Shown here piece after piece: positions 11,706 to 41,200 of a stretch of 64,000 bases of DNA. The stretch's first letter is position 1. Every line of letters starts with the position of its first letter. Source of the stretch: Isurus oxyrinchus. Taxonomy: Eukaryota. Location: NCBI GenBank assembly GCA_026770705.1, contig JANJGN010000021.1, positions 104,904,001-104,968,000 of the forward strand, written 5' to 3'. The notes under the pieces were generated by a model, which saw only the letters and a program-made list of their open reading frames with translations, was not told where the DNA came from and searched no databases. The translations under genes were made by a program, and so were the position numbers.

Positions 11706-14700
11706 TAGTTACAAGGTTCTTGCAAGCTGTGTGGATGAGAGCAGGGACTGCAAGGAGGATGAGCGAACTGACCACTTTAGCATGGTACAGGGAGCCATAC
11801 AAGTAGGGAGAGGAAATGGGAGCGTGCTAGCAGTAGGGGACAGTAGAATTATGGCGATAGATACTGTTCTCTGCTGTGAGTGTGATTCCTGAAAGCTTTG
11901 TTGCCTGCCCAGTGCCAGGGTTAAGGACATCTCCTCAGGCCTGGAGAAGAACTTGCAGTGGGAGGGGAGGGATCCAGTTGTCATTCATGGTGGTGTGAAC
12001 GACATTGATAGGACTAGAAAGGAGGCTCCGCTGAAATAATTTGAACAGTTAGGATCTAAATGAAAAAGCAGAAGCTCCAAGGTAATAATCTTGGGATTGC
12101 TTTCTGAGCCACGGGCAAACTGGCAGAGGGTTAAAAAAAAAGTCAAGGAGTTAAATGTGTGACTCAGAGATTGGTGTGGGAGGAATGTGTTTCAGTTCAT
12201 GGGGTACAGGCATCAGTACTAGTGTAGAAAGGAGCTATTCCATTGGGATGGGTTTCACTTAAACCGTGCTGAGGCAAGTGTCCTGGCAAATAGAATAACT
12301 AGGGATGTAGAGAGGGTGTTAAACTAAATGGGAGGTAGAGGGTGGGCTGTAGGGGTGGGGGGGGGGGGGGGGGAGGGGCTGGTGGGTGATGAGGGTCATG
12401 GAAGGGGGATACGTAGATGTATGACACAAAAAGGATATGGCAGCCTTGCAGGGCAGCTATTCAGGTAATGATAGCCAGAGTGTGACAGGAAGGGGCAGAG
12501 AGTACAAACAGCAAATAGGCTCAAAGGGGGAAAATAGTAAAAAGGCAAAATTAATGGTCCTTTACTTAAATGCACGCAGCATTCGGAACAAAATAAGTGA
12601 ATTAACGGTACAAATAGGTGTTAATGGGTTTGATCTTATAGCCATTATGGAGACGTGGTTACAAGGAGATCTAAGCTGGGAACTAAATATTCAGGGCTAT
12701 TTGACTTTTCAGAAGGCCAAGAAGGAAGTAAAGGGTGGTGGGGTAGCTTTGTTAGTATGGGATGGAATATGTACGATAGCAAGAAAGTATCTTGGATTGG
12801 AAGATGTAGAATCCATGTGGGTGGAGGTAAGAAATAACAAGTGGAAGAAGACACTGGTGGGAGTAGTCTATAGGACTCCTGACAGTAGCTACACCGTAGG
12901 ACAGAGAATAAATCATGAGATAATGAGGGCATCTAAAAATGCAGTACATTAATCATGGGTGACTTTACTCTCATGTAGATTGGGAAAATCAAATTGGCAG
13001 AGGTAGACACGAGCAAGAATTGATGGAGTGTATTTGGGACAGTTTCTTAGAACAATATGTTGTGGATCCAATCAGGTATCAGGTTGTTTTGGATCTGGTA
13101 ATTTGCAAAGACTCAGATCTAATAAATGACCTAAGAGTAAGGAGCCCCTAGGAAACAATGAGCATAATATGGTAGAATTTAGCATTCAGTTTGAGAATGA
13201 AAAACTTGGTTTGGAAATAACTGTGCTAAACATAAATAAGGGTAATTACAATGGAATTAGGGAAGAATTGGATGGAGTGGACAGGGAAAGCAGTTTAGCA
13301 GAAAGGACAGTTGATGAACAATGGCAGACATTTAAGAAAATAATTCATGACTCTTAACAAAGATATATCCCAGTGAAGAAGAAGGATTCAAGGAAGGGGA
13401 TAAACCAACCATGGTTAACCAAGGAAGTTAAGGACAGTATCAAATTGAAAGGAAAAATACAATGTGGTAAAGATTAGTGGGAAGCCAGAGGATTGGGAAA
13501 TTTTAAAAAACCAACAAAAGATGAGCAAAAAAAAGGGAGAAAATAAACTTTGATGGTAAACCATCAAGTAATATAGAAATGGACAGTAATAGCTTCTTTA
13601 AATATATAACAAGAAAGAGAAAGGCTAAAGTGAACATAGGCCCTTTAGAGAATGAGGCTGGGGAAATAATAATGGGGAACGAGGAAATTGCAGAGGAGTT
13701 GAATAAATACTTTGCTTCAGTCTTCATGGTAGAATATATTAATATCATTCCACAAATAGTAAATAATCAAGGAGCAAAAGGGGTGGGGGGAGGAAATGAA
13801 TACAATAACTAGCACTAGAGGAATAGTGCCAGGGAAACTAATGGGGCTAAAGCTCGATACATCCATTGGAACTGATGGGTTGCATCCAAGGATATTATAG
13901 GAAGTAGCTGCAGAGACAAGGCATGCACTGGTCATAATCTTCCAAGAATCCTTAGATTCTGGAACACCCCAGAGGATTGGGAAACTGCCAGCATAACAAC
14001 CTTATTTAAAAAGAGAGGGAGACAAAAAAACAGGTAGCTATAGGCCAATTAGCTTTACATCTGTCATTGGGAAGTGTTCGAGTCTATTGTATAGGATGTG
14101 ATAGCAGAGCATTTAGAAACACATAATCCAATCAAGCAGAGTCAGCATGGCTTCATGAAGGGAGAATCATACCTAAAGATTTATTAGAATTCTTTGAGGA
14201 GGTAACAAGCAGGGTAGATAAAGGGGAATCAGTGGATGTAATATATTTGGATTTCTAAAAAGCATTTGATATGGCACCGCACATAAAGCTACTTAATAAG
14301 ATAACAGCTCATGGTGCTGGGGGGGAGTATATTAGCATGGATAGAAGATTGCCTAACTAATAGGAAATAGAGAGTTGGCATAAGGGGCGCATTTTCCGGA
14401 TGACAACCTTTAACTAGAGTGGTGCCACAGTGATCAGTGCTGAGGCTTCAATTATTTACAATACATATTAATGACTTAGATGAGGGAAGTGAATGTACTA
14501 TCACCAAATTTGTGGATGACACAAAAATAGGTGGGAAGGCAAATGGTATGGATGACACAAGGAGTCTACAGAAGGATGTAGGTTAAGTGAGTGCACAAAA
14601 AACTTGGCTGATGGACAATGTGGGAAAATGTGAGGTGATGCTCTTTGGCAGGAAGAATAGAGGAGCTGAATATTATTTAAATGGAGAAAGACTGCAGAAT

Positions 14701-15418: not shown

Positions 15419-16844
15419 TATGGACTGTGTACTTTCTGTGAACATTAGAGTAGGAAATTTCTGCACATTGTGTTATCCTTACGAAGCTGTTTATATCTGT
15501 AAAGGCATAGTTGTGGATGAAGGAGTATTGTAAAATAGTTAATGTTTCTTGTTTAACAAAGGTTTTATTATTTTGTTAAAGCGTCATCAGCTGACACCGG
15601 CAACTCTTCAGTAGCTACCCTCCACGTAACATCAGCTGGGATCATAACAATAATGATATAATAATATAACAATATACAATGATCTCATTAAACTGTAGAA
15701 CAGGCTAGAGGATCTGAAATATCTACCCTTTTTCCTCTGTTCCCTCTGATACACAATATCAAACTGTTTACTCCTAATTACACCGAACTCTACGTCCACT
15801 TACATAAGTGGCTATTGACATTGAATCTGGGATAGTATCAAGCACAAAACTGAAGGATTTGTCACACACACTTAATGGAAAACTTTGGTCAGCAATTTAC
15901 GGAGATTAAGTACTTTAATATTCATAAGAAACTGAAAGCAGTTAACCATAAGTCGCATATTTACATTTTTAGGCAACACATTGATTGCTACCTGTTATCA
16001 ACAATGTAACTGCATTGGGGAAGATTATTTGGATCCAATCCCTAGGAAGACAGCAAACGTATTTTCAATAACCTGCTCATGAATTCACCAGAAATACTCA
16101 CGTAATGAAATTTTCACCCATTTATTGAAACATCCCCTACAAGCAATGACCCAGAAGGCCTTTTTCCCACCTTGTGCTGTTTTCCAAAGCTGGTAAAAGA
16201 TACAGTTTGATCACGAGAATGAAGATCTGATTATCAAGAGTATTCGAAGAGACACACCGACTCTGCAGACTGGTTAATTGGAACATTGGTGTCTTCCACA
16301 ACTGGGAAATTAGGAACAACTTTACACACATTCATAGTTAACATGTTGAAAATGTTTAATCATTAGCAGGGTAATAGAGAACAAGGTAGTTGGTGTGCTA
16401 GATATGCTTTAAAATTGCTTAGTACGAGGCTGGGCTAATGGAGGATCAGGATGTTGATGTCTTTCAAGTTTCTTCCCACAGCTTCATCTGATGGTGGCGT
16501 ACTCGACATGACATGTCTCACAGTTCATTGCCTTCTTCTTCCTCTCTTGTTTTATGTTCACTTTGGCGTAATGCAGGGAGACATCCTCATCACTGCTGAA
16601 TTTAGACTGTGCCTAATAATTATCGCAATCAGATAAAAATAGATTTAATTCCCAGTGCAGGTAAATGCAGCCACATCCAATTGCATGTTTGTAGCGTCCT
16701 TAAGGAAGAAAAACTTTAAAAGGAACTTTAAAAAAAACATGCAGAGACAAGTTTGCATGTTGGAGAAACAGTTAAAATCACCAGGATTGGCCGAAGTTGT
16801 TTGTGGATGAGTAGAACCCTGAGTGGCATACATGTTGAAGGAGA

Positions 16845-23655: not shown

Positions 23656-23696
23656 TTAGATGTTCTGTGTGAATGTCTCTTGGGAAGTTATGAACC
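23656..23696 (-). CDS. NCR3: NCR3-like terminal coding exon (RFITSQETFTQNI*)
   Basis: Strong acceptor ctctctattttcactttcag|GGTTC, with TAA at 23656-23658 in the carried frame. No poly(A) signal identified with confidence. Confidence 0.52.
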
Positions 23697-24029
23697 CTGA
23701 AAGTGAAAATAGAGAGGAGCCTTTCAGCCCATCAGTATGGGTGAGAAATGATGCAGGGCATAACGTGAACACGTCACGCCTCCTTAAGCACCATTATTTA
23801 TCGTGATCATGCCTGGTTTCATTTTGCCGGATTGTATCAGCACTTCCCTCATTTTGCTAAACAAAGGTAACAGGGGAAAAACTTCACATGCATGTTTAGC
23901 ATATTGGAAACAGGTAGAGAAGTGAGCAAATCCATTGCTGGAGATAACTCTTGGCAAATTATTGAAACCGTTTATCAGAACCACCTAGCATTGCACATAT
24001 CACACATCTCATTCTCCAATTGCTCTTAC

Positions 24030-24058
24030 TTGTGTCGTTGGCTGTAGATTGGCTGTTG
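24030..24058 (-). CDS. NCR3: NCR3-like cytoplasmic micro-exon 2 (29 nt, NSQSTANDT)
   Basis: Acceptor tcttctactcccacag and donor CAA|gtaaga; open in the frame carried from the previous exon. Confidence 0.58.
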
Positions 24059-24099
24059 CTGTGGGAGTAGAAGACAGTGATGTGTCAGAGTCATACAAT

Positions 24100-24180
24100 G
24101 CCATACACATGAACACACAGACAGAGGCAGACACACGCATACACACACTCACACAGAAACACACACACACAAAGACACAC
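24100..24180. repeat. Imperfect (CA)n microsatellite in an NCR3-like intron
   Basis: acacacag/acacacac arrays. Confidence 0.8.
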
Positions 24181-24429
24181 AATATGAGATCAAATTAAAT
24201 TGAAGAAAAAAATTGTAAATGTATTTTTATACTTAGTTTGTTTTTAATTAGCCAGGAATAAAAATTAATGCTTACAACATCAAATGAAGGCAATTACTGG
24301 TCACGTACCATGTTTTGTATTGGTTTCACTGTGATGTCTGTAATAAGCAAAATTAAAATTGAATTTAAAGTTCAGCACATTACGTTCTGAATAATCACCA
24401 ATTTGATAAGGTTTGACATTTTCATGTAC

Positions 24430-24448
24430 CTTTTCAGTCTCCGGATAA
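24430..24448 (-). CDS. NCR3: NCR3-like cytoplasmic micro-exon 1 (19 nt, VIRRLKS)
   Basis: Strong acceptor tatttttctttcag and donor AAG|gtacat. In frame after the TM exon it supplies a basic stop-transfer cluster, RRLK. Confidence 0.62.
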
Positions 24449-25394
24449 CTGAAAGAAAAATAATGTAGACATTAATAAAATTGTTTGACGTTAATAACTT
24501 GGTGAATCTTTTTCTCATGAAAAGATCGCAAAATTGATCTTTGACAGGCACACACGGATAGATAGGACTCTGAGTCTGGTGACTATATGCACCAGTGGCA
24601 TAGTGAGTACATGGATATTTTCTCCTTCAAGTAATGGGTTGAGGAACTTCAGTTAGGTAGATAGATCGAGAAGTTGGAACTGTTATTCTTGGAGTAGAGG
24701 ATGTTGAGAGGAGATTTGATGGAAGTATTCAAAATCACGAGGGACCTGGCAAGAGTAGATAGGGAAAAAACATGTTCCCATTGATGGAAAGACCGAGAAC
24801 AAGCACAGGTTATCGGGGTGGTAGGCTGGAATGTAGACTTGAGCTCCCAATCAGATTAACCATGATCTTATTGAATTTTGGAGCTGGCTCAAGCGGCTGA
24901 ATGGACTACTCCTTCTCCCAATTCGTATGTCCGCCCAGAGTGAAGGTGAGTGGCCAAAGAAACAATGGCAACGATTTTTACACAGCGAGGGGTTAGGATC
25001 TGGAATGTTCTGCCTGAGTGTGGTGGAGGCAGGTTCAGTCAAAGCTTTCAAGATTGAATTGATTTATTATCTGAGAAAGGGAGAATGTGCACGGCTATGG
25101 GGAGAAGGCCAGGGAGTGGCTCTAGGTAAGTTGCTCCTACGGAGGGACAGCACAGAAACGATGGGTTGAATGGCCTCTTTCTGTGCTCTAACAATTTGGT
25201 GATTCGCAAATGAAATCCTAAGTTTTAAAACAATTGTTCATACTAATCAGGTTTCCGATTGCACTAGAGATGCTGACAAGCTCCACAGAAGCACGAACCA
25301 GGTTGCTTCTCCTAGTGGCCAGAGCAATTGCTCCGTACTATGGCGAAAGTGTAAAAGTTAAACGGGTACCAGAGCGTTTGATATAGATACACAC

Positions 25395-25514
25395 CGATGC
25401 TTTGCCAGATCAGTCCAAATATAAGGAGCGCTGCGGTTATACCCAGCAAAGTCAAAGCACCTTTCAGTCCAAGTATCAGGTCAGGCTTCCCGCTATTTTC
25501 CTCTGGCATCTTGC
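25395..25514 (-). CDS. NCR3: NCR3-like stalk and transmembrane exon (charged Lys in TM)
   Basis: Acceptor cttatttcag|GCAAGATG joins the V exon in frame (C|GC = Arg), giving RKMPEENSGKPDLILGLKGALTLLGITAALLIFGLIWQSI. The Lys in LGLKGA sits where NKp30 has Arg (LLLRAG). 120 nt, phase 1/1, with a weak donor ATCG|gtgtgt. Confidence 0.8.
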
Positions 25515-25632
25515 CTGAAATAAGGAGTTAAGTCAATATTTTTAAATTTTAATCTGCAAATGTTGAGGAAAAATGATTTTGTCTTCTATGATAAAAACTA
25601 CGGTTGTAAGCATATATAAATAAATGGAGAAC

Positions 25633-26538
25633 TGTGATGAAAGTATAATAATTTTCATAATATTTTCTTGGTTTATTGTGAATTAGGTTTATGGGGGTAA
25701 GTATAGTTGGGTCTGTCTGTGTGATTTAATGACATTTGGGGTGCAAGCTTGAAATCATCAAAAGAAGTCATGTGCTTGACATGCTGACGAGTAAACATGG
25801 ATGCTGGCTTAGGTAAAGTGTGAAGGCAATTTGCATTTTTAGATAAATGAAGATTTGGATTTCAAAGGGAGCTTAGTGTGTTTACAACTAGCCAGATAAG
25901 CAAGGCTAAGGAATGTGTTTGTTTTTCCCCAAAGATTACTGACAATATTGGCAACATGAAAGTTTTAAATTATGAGCAAGTTACAGTTTCAAAGACATCA
26001 AGAACAATATAATTTACATATTAAAATGAGAGAAATATATATAAAGGAGAATGAAAGGCAATGTGGGAGGAAGACCATGTAAGCTCTGACAGGAGTGTTT
26101 CAAATCGCCTTAATAAAGCCCCTAACCATGAATGCTATGTAACAAAACTGAGTTTGGGGTAAAGCCATTTGGAATTCCACTGTCAAGTGGGTATTGTGTT
26201 AACTTCTTGGTTCAGTTTTAAATCTAAAATCCACTTTAGATTGTTGCCTTAAAGGAGGAGTAACTGAGGGTCAGGTTATTTAGGAATTTTAGCAGTTATT
26301 ACCGTCATAACTAATTGTAGTCTTATGTATGCACTTGAAATATTTTATATTTTGTTCATAAATATTTTAAAGTAATTTTTATGAAAAATCTCTAAAGGTC
26401 TTGGTGGACTTATTACTTCTGAATTCAGTGGGCATGTCTTATTGTAATAAATACAAATTGCAAAACTGTTGTGAGCGCAACCAAGTTTCCCTTATAAATT
26501 TGGTCCACCTGGCACACATCATCTGCCACGTCATAACA
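25633..26538. mobile_element. Solo LTR in the V-TM intron
   Basis: TGTGATGA...TCATAACA termini with near-identical flanking AGAAC/AGAAT repeats; organisation similar to the 10496 LTR. Confidence 0.55.
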
Positions 26539-26539
26539 A

Positions 26540-26880
26540 GAATTTACCTTTCTATAATGCCTTTCATGACCTCAGAACATTCCAAAGCATCTTACAACTA
26601 ATGACGCACTTTGGAAGTGCGGCTACTTTTGGAATGTAGGAAACTCAGTCAATCTTTGCACAGCAAGCTCCCACAGACAGACTAGATAACCTGTTTATTT
26701 TAGTGATGTTGATTGAGGATTACGTATTGGCCAGGGCACGGAGGGTACCTGCCCTGAAATTCCTCCTCGTATGCTCATGAGATTTTTTACAATCACTCTA
26801 GAGGACTTGGCTGAACATTTCATCCAAAGGATAGCAGCTCCAGGGATGTAGTGCCAAATTTTGAGGTGCAGGAGTTCTAA
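26540..26880 (-). mobile_element. Deu-domain SINE (SacSINE1/AmnSINE-like), old
   Basis: Reverse complement of Deu-core-like motifs (gcacagcaagctcccaca, tagtgatgttgattgagg, attggccaggg); family recognised from memory. Confidence 0.7.
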
Positions 26881-27334
26881 GAAAATGCGTTGGCGCTATA
26901 CTTCTAAATCTGTTATTGCGCTATGTATTAATCAATTGAGTCCCCAAACGTCAGTAAACCTACACTTTTTAAATGAAAAATTTCAAGCCTGTAGGCATTA
27001 TATTTCGAACCATGTGGTATTTTGAATCATTAGTCTTTAGCATAGCTAGAATTTCATTACGTAATTGTTTAACATTTAATTTAAACCCATTGAAACATGA
27101 ATTATAGAAAGCCTTACCTACTTCTGACTGGGCGATGGCACATAGAGAGGCCACTGCTTTTCTTGATTTATATTAATATAACCTAGACCTGAGTGTACGG
27201 GGCATTATTTCAAAATTAGAGGATGATGCAAGATTTGGAAGTATCGTGAACTGGGAAAGAGGCCGGTTTTAACCAGTGTCTTAAGGTAGTAAAAGGAAGT
27301 AGAGAGGCGGAGAGGTGTATGGAGGGAAATCCTT

Positions 27335-28430
27335 GGGCTGAATTTTACGCTCCAAGATCGGGAGGTTTCCCGCTTTGCGGAGTGTATTATGAGGCGGAAT
27401 CCAGCACGGCGGTTTCCGATAATACGGCAAGCGAGCGGGTCTAAAATTCGGGCGCCCGCATTATTCGAATATCAATTTATAAGGCAATTCAGACAATTAA
27501 CAGCCCACCTCACAGCAATAATACGATCAGAAGGCAATAATGAGCTTTCAGGGAGAGATTTGGATCAGGTGGGGAATGCATTCTTAAGGTCAAGCTTGTT
27601 TGAGCGGGTTTGAAAACTGCCGCTGAGACCAGAGTCTCAGGTTTGTAGTTCAAACTCCATTGGCTGCAGGGAGTGCTCATCTGAGTGGACAGAGGAGACT
27701 TTTTGACATTTTTCAGGAGAACTCTCCCCTGCTTCAGAGGGCACTTCTGATGGATTGTCCTGTCCATTGTCCAGGGTTGAGGGGTGAAAGGTGTCTGAGA
27801 CAGAAAGGAGTTGTTGTCGCAGTTGGAGACACAACCTCCCGTGAGGAGGAGAGAAGGATTAGAGGAGGAGAAGAAGGGTGAGAGGAAGAAGGGAACACAG
27901 AGAGGCTCAGGATGCTGTGCTGGCTCAGGAAGGGCACAGAACAGTGACAGGCCCTGAGGGTCAGGAGGAACCAAAAGGCCATCAGAAGAGGCACAGGTGG
28001 AGTTATGCCACCCCGAAGTTATACAGTCAGAGATCTAGCTACATGTGACTGACTTCATAATGTCATTGAACCTTTTGTGGCTCTAGGACTAAGTCCTGCT
28101 CACAACACTAACCCTGTTGACCTCGTCAGCCACCTTCTCCCATGTAGCACGAGTCTGCCTGGGCTTCTTCCTCTCCCTAGTGCTTGGCAGAAGCTGCTGA
28201 TGTCTATCATGTATTGCATGCAGGAGGGCACCATGGGCAACCTCACTGAATCTGCAGGCAGCTTTGCCCCTTCTAGAATGCCTCCCCCTGACTCTGATAT
28301 TGCAGACACCTTTACATGGCATAATACACCTTTTCGATGTCAAAAGTTGGGAGGCTTGCTGAATTTTAAAACTTCTGTCAACTATGAAGTTTGACATGGT
28401 TGGCAGAGATTAGCTAAAATGTAAAATAAA
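27335..28430. mobile_element. Internally deleted PIF/Harbinger DNA transposon (Myb/SANT-like ORF remnant on minus strand)
   Basis: TIR-like gggctgaatttt at 27335. Minus-strand RFSEVAHGALL...TWEKVADEVNRVSVVSRT*...HKRFNDI matches the Harbinger Myb/SANT-like DNA-binding domain. The plus-strand purine-rich stretch resembles the start of the nuclease gene. Confidence 0.72.
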
Positions 28431-28960
28431 AGCAGAGATTGCTGGAGAATGCTCAGCAGGCCTAGCAGCGCCTGTGGAGAGAGAAACATGGTTAACGCTT
28501 TGAGTTTGTGTGATTTCTTCAGAGCTGGAGAGAGGTAGAAATGTGATGGAGTTTGTACTTTTGATGAGAGGGGGTGGAGCAAGTAGAGCAAAATAGAAGG
28601 TCAGGGATGGTGGGAGCTTAGGAGGGATTTCACAAAGGACACAAGACAAAGGGAGTGGAGACGATAGTGCTAAAGATGAAGGCATGTGTTAATAGTGACA
28701 TAAAGAGCAGACAGTAGACTGCATTAATAGCAGAACAAGGACCATTGCTCTCTGAAAGCAAAACATAAGAACAAGTTACATCTGGCCATATGGGGGTGGG
28801 GTGGAGGCGGGGGGCAGTGGGTTGGAGGGAGTGGGTTTTGAAAAAAAAACATCAACATGGAGGACAGGGTTCATGGTCTGAATTTGTTGGGCCAATTTAA
28901 GTGTAGAAGATTGTAAAATGCCTAATTGGAAGATGAGGTGCTGCTCCTCTAATTAAGGAA
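28430..28960 (-). mobile_element. Penelope-like element 3' fragment
   Basis: Reverse complement of the family seen at 37250-37975; short derivatives at ~35765-35970, ~41990-42075 and ~42410-42520. Confidence 0.65.
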
Positions 28961-30266
28961 TCGACTTTACAGCCCGGTTTTTTGAAACCATCTTTCCGAA
29001 CATGCCAAGATATTTACGGTTCCGCACCAGGTTTCTCAGCAATGAAGCAAAGGTCGGGTAATAATCCATTGAATTTGGTGGGTGATGAAAACTGTTTGGG
29101 TGCGACTGCAGGGAAGTTCCATCTCCCTTATCTACTCATGTATGCAAACTCAATGGAATGCCTTTCAAAGTGTAGGTCCCTGTATACACTTTTGTATTAA
29201 AAATGCCAAAGATACTTAATGTTCCAACTTAATCGCAACGAGCACGCCAATTTCTTGTTACATTGTTTTTTTTAACAGTTATATATTGGCAAATTCTAAC
29301 AAAATATTGATGACCATTATCGTACTCTCTATACCTATTACATAAAATAAGGCCAAACTGAGAGTAGGTCAATCAGAAGTGAACATTCTTTAACTTTTTT
29401 AAAAGTCTTTGCTCCGTGTGTTTGGAGCCGTCTGCATCGGCCGCTCCCTGGCTCTACTTGGAAGTGCCGGAGGGGCACTCCGGTGCGATCCGGCAGCACT
29501 ACATCCCTGGGCACCTCCAACACTGCAGCACTCTCTCCATTTCGCTCTGGAGAGTTCGTCTTGATTTTTGTGCTCAAGTGTCTTAGACTGGGACTATAAC
29601 GGTAGAAACAGTAAAATTGAGTCTGGATAATTGCCACTGCAAAGCGCTTCTTAAGTAAGAGCAATATCTAGAGACGTCCTTCTACTTGTGTTGCGTTTCT
29701 GCCTGCTCTCCCTAAAGGAATGACTCTTCATGCGTTCTGGCGACACTGGGGAATCGGGAATATTCAACGTTGAGCCCAGCGGGTAGAGATTGGCTGATTG
29801 ATTCTAAGCAGTGTCACAACGCAGCTCAGCCCTAGTCGGCTTTGGCATGGACTTTGGCCTTATTGCTTCGGCAACCCGTTATACATTGCGCTCCGTTTTC
29901 GGTTTCATTGATTCAAGGGGACTTCAGTTATGCTGACTTCAATAAAACGGAATACCCGACGTGTTGCACAACGGGCTGCAGACGCGATGCAGTATGTTTT
30001 GCATCAGCGCCTGCGTCCAGTTTCATTGCCGCTCCCGCCCCATCTCCAGATGCACACATAAATACCGGCACATTCTGGAGAGCAACATTTGAGGATGACG
30101 AGAAGGATTTACTCTGAATGATCTGCAGGTCCCTGATGCCCATATTACTACAGAGTAGTGAGGTCAGTTAATTTATCACAGTCTGCAAATTGGCCCGGGG
30201 CAGTCCGATTAGTCTGTGAAATTAAAAGACTTTTTGAATAAATGATTATTTTAAATTGTCACTTAC

Positions 30267-30605
30267 GCTTTACTTCCAGTTTGGTGCCATTTCCATTTCT
30301 CATTCCTGTTCCCATTAAGCTTACACGACAGTAATAAGTGTCTGAGTCTTTCTCAATCAACTCGGAGATATTAATGAATATTCTGTTGTTGGCAAATGAA
30401 TCGCTGTCTGATCTCTCCAGCCGAGCTTCATAAAACGGACTATTGTCCAGTTTGTAGCCATCTGGTTTTCCCCGTGTCCAGTGAGCTGCTCCGACCAGGG
30501 CTAGGTTTCCGTCAAAGTCTAAGGCACAGTGCAGTGTTACCGACTCCCCCTCCGCTGCAATTATAAAGGGAGGGAACTGGTAAACGGTGTTACTCGGCTT
30601 CCCAT
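30267..30605 (-). CDS. NCR3: NCR3/NKp30-like receptor, Ig V-set (VJ-type) domain exon
   Basis: 339-nt open exon, phase 1/1, acceptor tttctttcaacag|ATGGG, donor AAGC|gtaagt. Translation DGKPSNTVYQFPPFIIAAEGESVTLHC...AAHWTRG...INISELIEKDSDTYYCRVSLMGTGMRNGNGTKLEVK has canonical V-set Cys, Trp, DxxxYxC and GxGT. It resembles human NKp30 as recalled from memory (VSQPPEIRTLEGSSAFLPC...YVCRVEVLGLGVGTGNGTRLVV). The symbol means family-level similarity, not proven orthology. Confidence 0.88.
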
Positions 30606-31807
30606 CTGTTGAAAGAAACAACTTGAATTTTAAACGAGATAAGGTTAAATGTTGCCCGACAAAAGGTGTAATTATTATTTCATAAATTATAGATGTAAAG
30701 GAAATGAAGAGAACAGTGGATGCTGGAAGCGTCAAATAAATAAGCAGAAAGTGTTTGACCTGTCTAGCAAATCAGTCACAGCCTGAAAGAGAAAGGCAAG
30801 TTCATGTTTGGTTATTTTGGCAAGGTGATGTTTGGTTATTTTGTCAGGTTAATGTCTGATTGTGTTGGCGGGTTAATCAAAGGCAGCCGCCAATTAACGT
30901 CAGCAACGTCCCACATTTGGCTTAAACTTAACGAAGGTATCGCCTAGAATTTCTGCGGCGGGCTGCCTCCATCTCCCATCGTAACTTCGGCGGAAGATCG
31001 ATGAGCTTAAACAGCCGCCGAACTTCCATCAAAATTAGGGTCGGAGATCGAAGGAACCTCTCAGGAATTCTAAACCTGCTCGCAGGAGCCTGGTCTATTG
31101 CTAAGCAGGGAACAGCTCTGTTTCATGGTTAGTGCGGCAACATTCTGTAAACTGCAAGGAAATTAAAACCTTAACGATTTGTCCCCCCGGTGCGTTTTGC
31201 CGACTGGGAAGTGGGAATGTCCTCCCAAAACAAGTCGAATTTCTGCAAGATTTGCAGTTTAAATTTGCACCATTCTCCAGCCTATCGGCGTCATCCGTTA
31301 AGCAGTTAAAATACAGTTTACTCACCAGCGCCCGTTGCAAGGATAATCAGCTGAAGTAGAGTGAGCTGTTGGCTTAACAGCATCATCTGTGAATTTGTAC
31401 AGACGCTGAAAATTATGAGCCAGAAGTCAAGCAAGGTGAGCTGATGTATTCACACCAACCGACCGACTTAAAAAGCGTGAATGGAATTAATTGTGGGTCC
31501 CCCCGTTAATGACACAGGATATAGACACACTGTTGCACAGAATTAAACGCTCTTCGTCTTTAAAGATTTTTTTAAAGAGTTCGGGAATTGTTAACTGTTG
31601 ATGGTGCTTGACAATTAAAGAGCACAGGAAACACAGGGTATTAAGCTCGTCAACTGCTCATGCAATTCGCCAAAAGTGCGGTTTTATGTTTAACCTGCGG
31701 AGTCCGTAAACTGCAGATTGCTCCGTGACGATGATGTTGCAAGTGGCTAAAGTGGAGGGAAGGGGCGGCGTGTAACACACGTGACTAAAAGTTTCCATTC
31801 AGCTAAC

Positions 31808-31874
31808 CGTGGGCCTGGATTCCAGCAGCAATGTTTGTGACTATAATGCTTATGATAATGGCAACTGTGTTCAC
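31808..31874 (-). CDS. Candidate signal-peptide exon of the NCR3-like gene (begins GTG, no ATG)
   Basis: Reads (V/M)NTVAIIISIIVTNIAAGIQAH and ends in a phase-1 donor CACG|gttagc that matches the V exon (G|AT = Asp). An in-frame TGA lies four codons upstream of the GTG and there is no ATG. Confidence 0.45.
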
Positions 31875-32674: not shown

Positions 32675-35190
32675 TTAAATATAGGAACAGGAGAAGGCCA
32701 TTCAGCCCGTCGAGCCTGCTGCGCTATTCAATGCAATCATGGCTGATCTTATATTTCAATGCCTTTTACCCACACTATCCCCATAAACCGTTACGTTATT
32801 GTTAATCAGAAATCTATCAATCTTTATCTTAAACATACTCAATAGCTGAGCTTCCATGGCCCTCCTGGGGTAGAGAATTCCAAAGATTCGCAACCCTCCG
32901 AGTGAAGAAATTTCTCCTCATCTCGGTCTTAAGTGGCTTTCCCCTTATATTGAAATTGTGTCCCCTGGTTCTAGACTCCCCAAATAGGGGAAACACCTTA
33001 CCTACATCTACCTTATCTGCCCATTTAAGTATTTTGTAGGTTTCAATGAGATCACGTCTTAATCTTCGAAACTCTGGAGAATACAGACCCAGTTTCCCCA
33101 ATTTCTTTTTGTAAGACAGTCCCACCATCCCCGGAACAAGTCTGGTGAACTTTCGTTGCACTCCCTCATGGCAAAAGTATCCCTTCTGAGGTAAGGGGAC
33201 TAAAACTACACACAGCACTCCAGGTGCAGTCTAGCCAAGCTTCTATTCAATTGAAGCAAGACTTCACTACTCCTGTACTCAAATCCTCTTGCGATAAAGG
33301 CTAACATTCCATTAACCTCCTTAATAGCTTTCTGCACCTGTATGTTAGCCTTCAGTGACTTATGATCAAGGACACCCAGGTCTCTTTGTATATCTACACT
33401 TTCTAATCTATTACCATTGAGGGAATACTTTACACATCTGTTCCTTCTACTGAAGTGGATGACCTCATATTTTTCCACATTATATTCCATCTGCCATGTT
33501 CTTGCCCTCTCACAAAGCCTGCCCAAATCCTCCTGTAGCCGTTTTACACCATCCTCACAATATACATTCCAGTCTAGCTTTGTAACTTTAGCAAACATTA
33601 ATATATTATACTTGATCCCCACATCCAAATCATTGATATATATTGTGAACAGCTGGGGCCCCAAGTCCTGACCTTTGCAGTACCCAATTAATCACAATCT
33701 GCCAACGTGAGAATGACCTGCTTTCTGTTTTCTGCCTGTTAGCCACTCCTTAATCTATGCCAGCATATTGCCTCCTATGCCACGTGCTTTTATTTTGCTA
33801 ATCATCCTCCTGTGGGGGACTTTACAAAAAGCTTTCTAAAAATCCAAGTATCCTACATCCATCGACTCTACTCTACCAATTTTGTTAGTAACATCCTCAA
33901 AAAACTCCAACGAGTTCGTCAAACATGATTTCCCATTCACAAATCCATGCTGTCTATGTCCAATCAGGTCATGATTATTCAAGTATCTATTTATCACATC
34001 CTTTATAATAGATTCTAGCATTTGCCCTACCACTGGTGTAAGGCTAACAGGTCTGTAGTTCCCTGTTTTCTCTCTCCCTCCCTTCTTAATTAGTAGGGTG
34101 ACAGTTGCTACCTTCCAATCTTCAGGAACCATTCCAGAATCTGTAGAATTTTGGAAAATGACCACCAATGCATCCACTATCTCTATAGCAACCTCGTTCA
34201 ACACTCTGGGGTGCAGAATATCAGGTTCCAGCGACTTGTCAACTTTCAGCCCCATTAATTCCCCAATACAACCCTCTTACTTATACTAATTTCTTTCAAC
34301 TCATCATTCTCTTTTGGATCTCTAAATCTGGGAGCTTTCCTCTATCTTCCTCACTGAAAACAGACACAAGTCATTTAACTCCCTGCCATTTCTCTATTCC
34401 ACATTATGTATTATTCTAACTCTGCCTGTAATGGACCCATATTGGTCTTAGCCAACCGTTTCCATTTTACATACCTATAGAAGCTTTTACAGTCCGTTTT
34501 TATGCTTTTTGCCAGATTGCATTCATTTTCTATTCTCCCTTTCTTTACTAGTTTCTTGATCTTCCTTTGCTGTATTCAAAAAAAGCTCTAATCCTACTTC
34601 TGGCAACTTTATATACCTTTTCTTTTAAACTTGTACGATCCTTAAACTTCCTTTGTCAGCCACGGTTGATTGACCTTTTTGGATTTTTGCACCTTGAAGG
34701 AAAGTATAGTAGTTTTTTGAAGATTATCAATTGCCTCTGTACAGTCATACCTTTTAATGTATTTCCCCAATCCACCTCAGCCAATTTGCCCCTCATGCCT
34801 TCGTAATTTCCTTTATTCAATTTTAATACCCTTGCTTCCGATTGAACTACCTCACTTTCAAACATAATGTAACATTCATAATATTGTGGCCACTCTTCCC
34901 TAAAAGTTCTTTTACAACAACATAATTAATTATCTCTTTTTCATTACATGATACGAGATCTAAAATAGCCTGACCTTTAGTCTAGAACATACTGCCCTAG
35001 AAAATCATCTCTAACACACTCCAAAAACTCATCTTCCACAGCATTAGTACTAAATTAGTTTTTGCAGATTGAAGGCACCCATGATTACGTATTACCCATG
35101 CTACATGCTTCTCCCATTCCTGATTAATACAATGCCCCACATTACCATTAATATTTGGTGGCCTATAAACACCTCCAACCAATGTCTGCC
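32675..35190 (-). mobile_element. CR1 LINE ORF2 (degenerate)
   Basis: GPQLFTIYINDLD, NYRPVSLT, QHGFVNGKSCLTN and YLDF motifs, plus a CR1 3' tail at ~32680. Confidence 0.92.
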
Positions 35191-38274: not shown

Positions 38275-41200
38275 ATCACAGAATCACAGAATCAGCCCCT
38301 TGGGTTTGCACCGACACGTGAGAAATACCTGACCTACCTACCTACCTAATCCCATTTACCAGCATAAGACCTTGAGTGTTATGGCGTACCAAGTGCTCAT
38401 CCAGGTACTTTTTAAAGGTTGTGAGGCAACCCACCTCCACCACCCTCCCAGGCAGCGCATTCCAGACCATCAGAACCCTCTGGTTAAAAAGTTTTTCTCA
38501 CATCCCCCCTAAACCTCCTGCCCCTCACCTTGAACTTGTGACCTTTCGGAACTGACCCTTCAACTAAGGGGAACAGCTGCAACCTAAGCACCCTGTTCAT
38601 GCCCCTCATAATCTTATACACTTTGATCAGGTCGTCCCTCAGTTTTCTCTGCTCCAATGAAAACAACCCAAGTCTATCCAACCTCTCTTCATAACTTAAA
38701 TGTTTCGTCCCAGGCAACATCCTGGTGAATCTCCTCCAGTGCAATCACATCCTTCCTATAATGTGGCGACCAGAACTGCACACAGTACTCAAGCTCTGGC
38801 CTCATCAAGGTTCTATACAACTCCAACATGACCTCTCTACTTTTGTAATCTATGCCTCGATTGAGAAAGACAAATGTCCCATATGCCTTTTTCATCACCC
38901 CACTAACATGCCCCTCCGCCTTCAGAGATCTACTGGCAAACACGCCAGCGTCCCTTTGTTCCTCAGAACTTCCTAGTGTCATGCCGTTCATTGAATAATT
39001 CCTTGTCAAATTACACCTTCCAAAGTGTATCACCTCACATTTTTCAGGGTTAAATTCCATCTGCCACTTATCTGCCCATTTGACCATCCCGTCTATATTT
39101 TCCTGTAGCCCAAGACCCTCAACCTCACTGTTAATCACCCGGCCAATCCTTGTGTCATTCGCAAACTTACTAATCCTACCCCCCACACAGTCATCAATGT
39201 TGTTTATATAAATGATGAATAATAGGGGACCCAGGACAGATTCTTGTGGAACACCACTGGACACTGGCTTCCAGTCACTAAAGCAACCTTCTGCCATCAC
39301 ACTCTGTCTCCTACAACTAAGCCAATTTTGAATCCACCTTATCAAATTGCCCTGTATCCCATGTGTATTTGCCTTCTTTATAAGTCTCCCATGTGGGACC
39401 TTGTCAAAGGCTTTGCTGAAATCCATATAAACTACATCAACTGCACTACCCTCACCTACACACCTGGTCACCTCCTCAAAAAATTCAATCAAATTTGTTA
39501 GGCATGACCTCCCTCTGACAAAGCCATGCTGACTATCCCTGATCAAAGCTTATCTCTCCACGTCGACATAGATGCTCTCCTTCAGAATTTTCTCCAATAG
39601 CTTCCCTACCACGGATGCGGGACTCACTGGCCTGTAGTTCCCTGGCTTATTTCTACAACCCTTCTTAAATAGTGGAACCACATTAGCTGTTCTCCCGTCC
39701 TCTGGCACCTCCCCAGTAACCAGAGAAGAATTAAAAATTTGGGTCAGAGCCCCTACGATCTCCTCCCTTGCCTCCCTCAGCAGTCTGGGACAGAAATCAT
39801 CCAGACCTGGAGATTTGTCCACTTTCAGGTCTACCAACACCTCCAATCCCTATACCAATTTGCACAAGAATCTCGCAATCTCTGTCCCCGAGTTTGATAC
39901 CTTGATCTTCATTCTCTTGGGTGAAGACAGATGTGAAGTATCCATTCAATCCTCTATCGATGCCCTCTGGCCCCACCCTTAGATTGCCCCTTGGTCCCTA
40001 ATGGACCCTACTCTTTCCTTGGTTATCGTCTTCCCATTGATATTGTTATAGAATTTCTTGGGAGTTTTCCTACTTTTACCAGCTAGAGCTTTCTCATATC
40101 CTCTTTGCTCTCCTAATTGCTTTCTTAAGCTCCATCCTACACTTTCTGTACTCTACTAATGCCTTCTCTGATTTGCTCCCCATGTAACTGCTAAAAGCTC
40201 CTCCTTTCCTTCTCATTGAATCCCGAAATTCTCTGGTTATCCATGGTTCTCTGGCCTTATTACTTCTTCCGATCAGCCTAGAGGGAACATGTTGAGCCCA
40301 TACCCTCCTCATTCCCTTTTTGAATGCTCACCACTGCTCTTCTGTAGATTTCCCCACAAGTAGCTGTTCCCAGTCTACCTTGGCCAGATCCTGTCTTATT
40401 TTACTGAAATACACTCTCCCCCAATCTAAAACATTATTTTGCAACTTGTCTATTTCTTTGTCCATTACAAGCATAAATTGTACCATGTTGTGGTCGCTAT
40501 CACCTAATTGCTGCCCCACCACCACCTCTGCCATCTGTCTGGCTTCATCCCCCAGAATTAGTGGCAGCACTGCGCTGTCCTTTGTTGGACTGCACTAGCA
40601 AACCCACTCGCAAGGATGTTAGTCCCACTCTGGTTCAGATGTAGACCGTCCCTCTTGTAAAAGTCCCACCTTCTCCAGAAACGTTCCCAGTGGTCCAGGA
40701 ATCCAAAACCCTCCCTCCTGCACCAATTCTTAAGCCACATATTCATTTGTGCCATTCTCCTATTTAAGTGCTCACTAGCACGTGGCACTGGGAGTAATCC
40801 AGAGATTAGAACCTGAGAGGTCCTGCTTTTCAGGCTACTGCCTAACTCCCTGAATTCTTGATGCAAGACCTCATCCCTCTTTCTACCTATGTCATCGGTA
40901 CGAACATGTACCATGACCTTTGCCTTATCACCACTCCCTTCAGGGTCCCATGCAATCGTTCTGTGACATACCGGACCTTGGCACCAGGGAGGCAACACAT
41001 CATCCTGGAGTCACATTGACAGCTACCGTAGAGCCTATCTGTTTCCCTGACTATAGCATCCCCTATTACTATTGTTCTTCCTCTCTTCCACCCCTCCTGT
41101 ACAGGAAGGCTGCTTGTGGTGCCAGATGCTTTGCGAGCGGAACGCCAGGGTGCTCCTGAACTACCTGCCTGTTTCTCTTGGATTGCCTGGTGGTCACCCA

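Follow-up and report, generated by a model that had tools for sequence, protein, structure and literature searches.

Does a natural cytotoxicity receptor gene of the shark Isurus oxyrinchus, whose transmembrane segment carries a charged residue, encode an activating or an inhibitory receptor? The gene lies within a window of 64,000 nucleotides (the whole stretch of DNA analysed: contig JANJGN010000021.1, here C21, positions 104,904,001 to 104,968,000; coordinates without a contig name are those of the window). A sequence-only reading had described an activating receptor of 204 amino acids, spliced from five exons and ending in a short, tyrosine-free tail. Our analysis recovers an NCR3-like gene on the minus strand, in which seven exons with AG/GT ends join into one open frame of 241 amino acids. 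Because this orthologue-supported model ends in two ITIMs (immunoreceptor tyrosine-based inhibitory motifs), the default reading is inhibitory rather than activating, and the receptor is probably of an inhibitory type with a two-ITIM tail and not of the short-tailed activating type. The corrected model is of consequence in that it turns the receptor's sign from activating to inhibitory.

Gene model, tail and family membership

All splice junctions of the seven-exon model are predicted from homology (tblastn with orthologue proteins together with splice-site and phase checks), and every feature of the gene given here is on the minus strand. With the orthologue proteins as queries, tblastn gave matches for the leader (31383-31321) and for the last exon (about 16610-16487). 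Exon 1 (31326-31386) encodes the signal peptide, starts with an ATG at 31386, has a second methionine at 31383 and ends in a GT donor in phase 1; its leader is 63-71% identical to those of the nurse-shark, Mustelus and Scyliorhinus proteins, and the exon is 92% identical to that of a sister copy of the gene, which is described below. Exon 2 (30267-30605, 339 nt, phase 1-1) holds a single, non-rearranging VJ-type immunoglobulin (Ig) domain running from strand A to the GxGT of strand G, and exon 3 (25395-25514, AG/GT, phase 1-1), which aligns to the transmembrane exons of the orthologues, encodes the stalk and the transmembrane helix. Three micro-exons follow: exon 4 (24430-24448, 19 nt), which has AG/GT ends, keeps the frame and encodes an RRLK basic cluster, and the cytoplasmic exons 5 (24309-24337, 29 nt, AG/GT) and 6 (24030-24058, 29 nt, located by tblastn with orthologue tails), both 93% identical to the sister copy. 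The last coding exon, exon 7 (16484-16612), contains both ITIMs and the stop codon, was matched by orthologue tails with expectation values (E) down to 1e-17 and is about 95-96% identical to its counterpart in the sister copy; polyA-like hexamers are found near it at 16360 and 16126. Five full-length shark proteins align with the complete model over its entire length, at 59-67% identity, and one of these is also 241 amino acids long.

The middle part of the five-exon splice proposed earlier stands, as the V exon, the stalk/transmembrane exon and the 19-nt RRLK and 29-nt exons are bounded by AG/GT and splice together in frame, while its leader and last exon do not. Its 204 amino acids can be reproduced arithmetically if the leader is put at 31874-31808 and the last exon at 23696-23656, and both ends are wrong. 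The leader (31808-31874, minus strand) would start with GTG and contains no ATG, and no orthologue leader matches there, the match falling at 31386-31326 instead. Exon 6 (24058-24030), which is matched by orthologue tails, was overlooked, and exon 7 lies 7 kb away, outside the range that had been considered. A short tail free of tyrosines is contradicted by the real last exon (16612-16484), which carries the two ITIMs. No orthologue protein ends in the stretch 23656-23696 (minus strand), which is most likely sequence of intron 6. Its acceptor at 23696 looks strong (90% pyrimidine) and is one of seven such sites across this 7.4-kb intron; at the equivalent position of the sister copy the AG is shifted by one base, the stop is lost and the identity is 85%, compared with 96% for exon 7. 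A further candidate for the last exon, at 23856, has no orthologue support and is 80% identical in the sister copy, and was therefore rejected.

Both tail motifs fit the pattern (S/I/V/L)xYxx(I/V/L). A pattern scan located the first as LHYAKV around Tyr214 (residues 212-217, 16559-16576) and the second as VEYATI around Tyr237 (residues 235-240, 16490-16507), the two tyrosines being 23 residues apart. In the five species with a full-length tail, the tyrosine of the first motif is retained in four and the EYATI of the second in all five. A close relative likewise keeps Tyr214 in its orthologous contig among the matches listed, with the second ITIM outside the coverage. The tail of about 70 residues with two ITIMs differs from that of human NKp30, which is given as 33 residues without an ITAM (immunoreceptor tyrosine-based activation motif) in the excerpts of PMC2195691 (papers with PMC numbers are cited from excerpts throughout), and the excerpts of PMC6514059 describe the tails of natural cytotoxicity receptors other than NKp44 as lacking a signalling motif.

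The gene is a member of the shark NCR3/NKp30 family, and here the sequence-only reading is supported by similarity in sequence and fold, by phylogeny and by a contig shared with class I genes of the MHC (major histocompatibility complex). The V exon (30605-30267) matches Pfam V-set with an E of 7.6e-9. In a phmmer search of the PDB the top four matches are human NKp30 (E 1.5e-9 to 2e-9; 41 bits, the next match having 35.7), and a Foldseek search with an AlphaFold model of the V domain (pLDDT 90.7) likewise gave human NKp30 as its top four, with TM-scores of 0.82-0.83; in a family-profile search of structures, NKp30 was the best single-domain chain, ranked below 13 multi-domain chains. The homologue search yielded six proteins from 176 candidates, all from sharks and with V domains 72-80% identical, among them nurse-shark NCR3 (QTT61901.1, P0002; named 'natural cytotoxicity triggering receptor 3', V domain 76% identical). 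This protein and its orthologues from Heterodontus (XP_067865596.1), Scyliorhinus, Mustelus, Chiloscyllium and Heptranchias, with V domains in the same range of identity, represent the same subtype and share the exon-coded tail with a distal EYATI. In a 49-row tree, which has no rows for mammalian NCR3, CD28/CTLA4, TCR, NITR or PRARP and whose deep nodes are poorly supported, the V domain joins a clade of shark orthologues that includes the named nurse-shark NCR3 (support 100/97); unlike in the set of shark orthologues, three near copies of the V exon from this genome group together (99/87). Mammalian NCR3 was absent from the 20 named matches of a profile search with representatives, which multi-Ig proteins dominated, and from the 12 matches listed in the last homologue search. 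With human NKp30 the gene shares the single VJ-type domain, the MHC linkage and a basic residue at the border of stalk and transmembrane segment; it differs in an identity of about 30% and in having Lys where the human protein has Arg.

Gene copies and the transmembrane lysine

The sister copy lies just to the right of the window, 47 kb away and also on the minus strand (67501-78342 in window coordinates, C21:104971501-104982342). It is intact, with the same seven exons, and encodes 239 amino acids that are 82% identical, including identical ITIMs; its transmembrane segment is uncharged and the basic cluster following it is weakened. Between the two copies the last exon shows a proportion of nonsynonymous differences (pN) of 0.04 and of synonymous differences (pS) of 0.08, and long genomic blocks, mostly intron, are 70-84% identical. 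The transmembrane exon and the last exon each have exactly two DNA matches in the genome, and the V exon of this type is present in three copies. At the third of these (C21:105011040-105012900) a V exon 90% identical is followed by an unrelated, uncharged transmembrane exon, and no matching leader or ITIM tail was found within 34 kb around it; a leader-like stretch upstream resembles an alternative N-terminus of Heterodontus and has an in-frame stop. From its sequence, this copy looks like the product of V-exon shuffling or conversion. Elsewhere on the contig, three tandem V exons 2.4 kb apart (C21:100850987-100856120; L012, L008, L009) probably form one multi-V NCR3-like gene.

The transmembrane lysine itself is present, as had been proposed, at position 151 (Lys151, codon AAA at 25462-25464). 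As judged by sequence comparison, Lys151 is derived in this copy, because the sister copy has Gly (GGC) at this position, as do all six orthologous species with a transmembrane segment on record, which read Gly-Gly in place of the Lys-Gly found here. Contigs from runs X1, X2 and X5 have the character of genomic DNA from a close relative, and X6 covers mainly repeats; the orthologous contigs of X1 and X5 carry Gly152Ser. In the contigs from six runs no joint matched an intron, which has no bearing on expression (X9 and X10 do not cover the transmembrane exon).

According to simple hydropathy sums, the best 19-residue transmembrane window comprises residues 152-170 and thus starts right after Lys151. 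The lysine is followed by 24 uncharged residues; in 16 other transmembrane segments of the family with a basic residue (12 Arg, 4 Lys), chosen by eye for having it N-terminally, 14-21 uncharged residues follow. In human NKp30, Arg143 lies where a stalk of 15 residues ends, and it is required for signalling (PMC7409301). Lys151 is located N-terminally at a spacing near that of Arg143 and is therefore, by its predicted position, of the FcR-gamma/CD3-zeta type and not of the DAP12 type. For DAP12 assembly, a lysine near the centre of the transmembrane segment, at position 9, is needed (Feng et al. 2006, PMC1440944), and the same rule on the position of the basic residue is given in PMC8102735; Lys151 is at the N-terminal edge of the helix, so the earlier suggestion that it points to DAP12 or DAP10 finds no support. 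FcR-gamma and CD3-zeta pair with an arginine situated N-terminally in the segment, to which the position of Lys151 conforms and its side chain does not. Fc-gamma favours Arg: changing the Arg of Fc-alpha-RI to Lys at position 3 reduced assembly with Fc-gamma, and the excerpts report no assembly of this mutant with DAP12 (PMC1440944).

Nor is a lysine in place of arginine unique to this gene; two other family genes of the same genome carry one as well. When 17 family V exons out of 19 were scanned on their 3' side (candidate transmembrane exons assigned by proximity, two tandem V exons left out), an N-terminal basic residue was found in this gene and in five others (2 Lys, 3 Arg), nine candidate segments had no basic residue and two V exons had no transmembrane segment. 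The two other candidate lysines belong to NCR3-like genes at C21:105241784 (L004) and 105155973 (L018). The same family includes two near-identical V exons (branches 0.04) at C21:100.32 Mb (L017) and 100.95 Mb (L013), whose candidate transmembrane segments differ, one being uncharged and one containing Arg; they are likely an activating/inhibitory pair.

As to possible partners, a Pfam search of the genome for DAP10 matched none of 59 candidates, which is not proof of absence. CD3-zeta-like and FcR-gamma-like transmembrane exons with a conserved Asp, labelled so on a Pfam match and on resemblance to the two sequences, are present in the genome. Two FcR-gamma-like exons, labelled by resemblance, have a conserved Cys and Asp (L065 on C1723, L066 on C1648); the excerpts of PMC4016189 report that the shark genomes of 2014 lacked an FcR-gamma chain.

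Inhibitory, switchable or silenced

If the receptor is inhibitory, its V domain would bind a ligand, conjectured by analogy to be a protein of the B7 family such as B7-H6, and the tyrosines of the tail ITIMs would become phosphorylated upon binding. Phosphorylated ITIMs are known to recruit SHP-type phosphatases; recruitment of SHP-1/SHP-2-type enzymes to this tail would dampen the activation of natural killer (NK) or T cells. Lys151 probably arose in this copy following a lineage-specific duplication. It would most likely be positioned at the outer membrane surface, above the 19-residue hydrophobic run, and its coupling to an ITAM adaptor would be weak or absent.

Several observations speak against so simple an inhibitory role. 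The nurse-shark orthologue lacks the first ITIM tyrosine, and the motifs of Heterodontus and Mustelus are partly off-consensus. The change from the sister codon GGC to AAA involves three bases, and the codon of Lys151 is unchanged in the orthologous contigs of X1 and X5, whose DNA is about 97% identical. Longer windows of 21-23 residues place Lys151 at position 5-6 of the transmembrane segment (position 6 for 21 residues), within the N-terminal region where the 16 other family segments have their basic residue too; it follows the matching end of the V domain by 18 residues, compared with 15 for human Arg143 (PMC7409301). Between the two copies, pN of the stalk/transmembrane exon is 0.21, as opposed to 0.04-0.08 for the other exons (Fisher p 3e-4), with no indication of positive selection, as it is not significantly above the pS of 0.13 (p 0.23). 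Finally, KIR2DL4, which combines an ITIM with an arginine in the upper part of its transmembrane segment, activates (PMC3422731). KIR2DL4 and NKp44-1 (PMC6514059) both have a basic transmembrane residue and an ITIM in one chain, as found here, and ITIM-less splice forms of NKp44 exist (PMC6514059). KIR2DL4 pairs with FcR-gamma through Arg and NKp44 with DAP12 through Lys, each has one ITIM instead of two, and both loci are unrelated to this gene, so that the comparison is a functional one.

The next reading in likelihood is a possible, if rather unlikely, receptor of dual sign: Lys151 would couple to FcR-gamma or CD3-zeta, the full-length receptor would send both signals in the manner of KIR2DL4 or NKp44-1, skipping of exon 4 would yield an activating isoform of 210 amino acids without ITIMs, and the purely inhibitory sister would complete a young paired set. 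The three micro-exons allow eight inclusion patterns, and in five of these both ITIMs disappear while the last exon continues to supply the stop. Among these, skipping of exon 4 shifts the frame into an open one of 210 amino acids that lacks both ITIMs and again stops in the last exon; it matches database isoforms of Heterodontus (P0009, 210 amino acids) and Scyliorhinus (P0010, 209 amino acids), and an isoform of Heptranchias (P0013) ends in the same frame by a different route. The exon-4-skipped form of this copy would keep Lys151 and lose the ITIMs, and a switch between inhibition and activation through exon 4 is possible on the basis of sequence. That Lys151 is derived and retained, that the CD3-zeta-like and FcR-gamma-like exons with their conserved Asp exist in the genome, and that five other family genes have an N-terminal Arg or Lys are all in line with such a switch. 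However, P0009, P0010 and P0013 are annotation models, and those that match come from species without the lysine; as the isoforms occur in such species, exon 4 skipping did not evolve for activation. Moreover, Fc-gamma prefers Arg (PMC1440944), the helix can cross the membrane without burying Lys151, and there is no sign of pN exceeding pS. It is doubtful, as a complete scenario, that an inhibitory shark NKp30 gave rise to a young duplicate which gained an activating-type basic residue, kept its ITIMs and, through an older skip of the 19-nt exon that gives an ITIM-less form, became a single gene with an inhibitory/activating switch beside a purely inhibitory twin.

Far less likely still is that the gene is a duplicate silenced not long ago, with Lys151 and the remaining transmembrane changes representing relaxed drift. 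The three V-exon copies in the genome and a stalk/transmembrane divergence between the copies near the level of introns would be expected from such a gene, but all seven exons and their splice sites are intact, pN is below pS in the V and last exons, and the transmembrane exon is intact in the close relative. Equally improbable is the original proposal of a receptor of 202-204 amino acids with a DAP12 or DAP10 partner and a tail from 23696-23656, a stretch whose open frame and pyrimidine-rich acceptor could at best make it a minor alternative last exon, as no orthologue ends in this way, the sister copy preserves neither the acceptor register nor the stop, the conserved exons 6 and 7 would be left unused, the lysine is not central and the leader has no ATG.

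Genomic setting and significance

Related V exons are found at 19 of 79 candidate sites in the genome, all on contig C21 and in two clusters. The same contig holds 30 of the 31 MHC class I matches, the nearest about 4.6 Mb from the gene, and a BAT2_N (PRRC2) gene about 150 kb from it, which we infer to be PRRC2A; a search of the genome for MHC class II gave no match anywhere. NCR3 of sharks is described as an MHC-linked VJ gene (PMC12227049, PMC10751288), and PMC12227049 gives eight nurse-shark NCR3 accessions. Well away from the main cluster of class I genes, one open frame of 845 amino acids contains matches to both alpha1 and alpha2 of class I (C21:66132994-66134184), which is unusual, as such exons are normally separated by an intron.

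The window also contains LINE-type fragments (long interspersed nuclear elements) at 38689-39549, 40558-41010, 33206-33691 and 12425-12952; Pfam matched two of them, as a reverse transcriptase (E 1e-21) and as a GDSL-like ORF1 piece, and the other two, for which Pfam gave no match, are assigned by eye. Intron 2 harbors a Myb/SANT-like fragment on the minus strand (28089-28409; Pfam PF13873, E 1.7e-4), probably the relic of a Harbinger-type transposon.

The gene itself is ordinary, since shark NCR3 genes have reportedly been published by Kinlein et al. in 2021 and an ITIM-bearing nurse-shark NCR3 (P0002) is already in the databases. Among the papers listed in a literature search we found no report of a shark NCR3 with both a transmembrane lysine and ITIMs; dedicated shark NCR3 papers may already describe either. 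Provided that Lys151 recruits an adaptor, the origin of activating receptors from inhibitory ones could be studied here in a simple case, as could the question whether shark adaptors obey the mammalian rule on Arg and Lys. Should the switch through exon 4 prove true, the two neighbouring genes would represent a paired receptor caught in the middle of its formation, in the oldest lineage with adaptive immunity.

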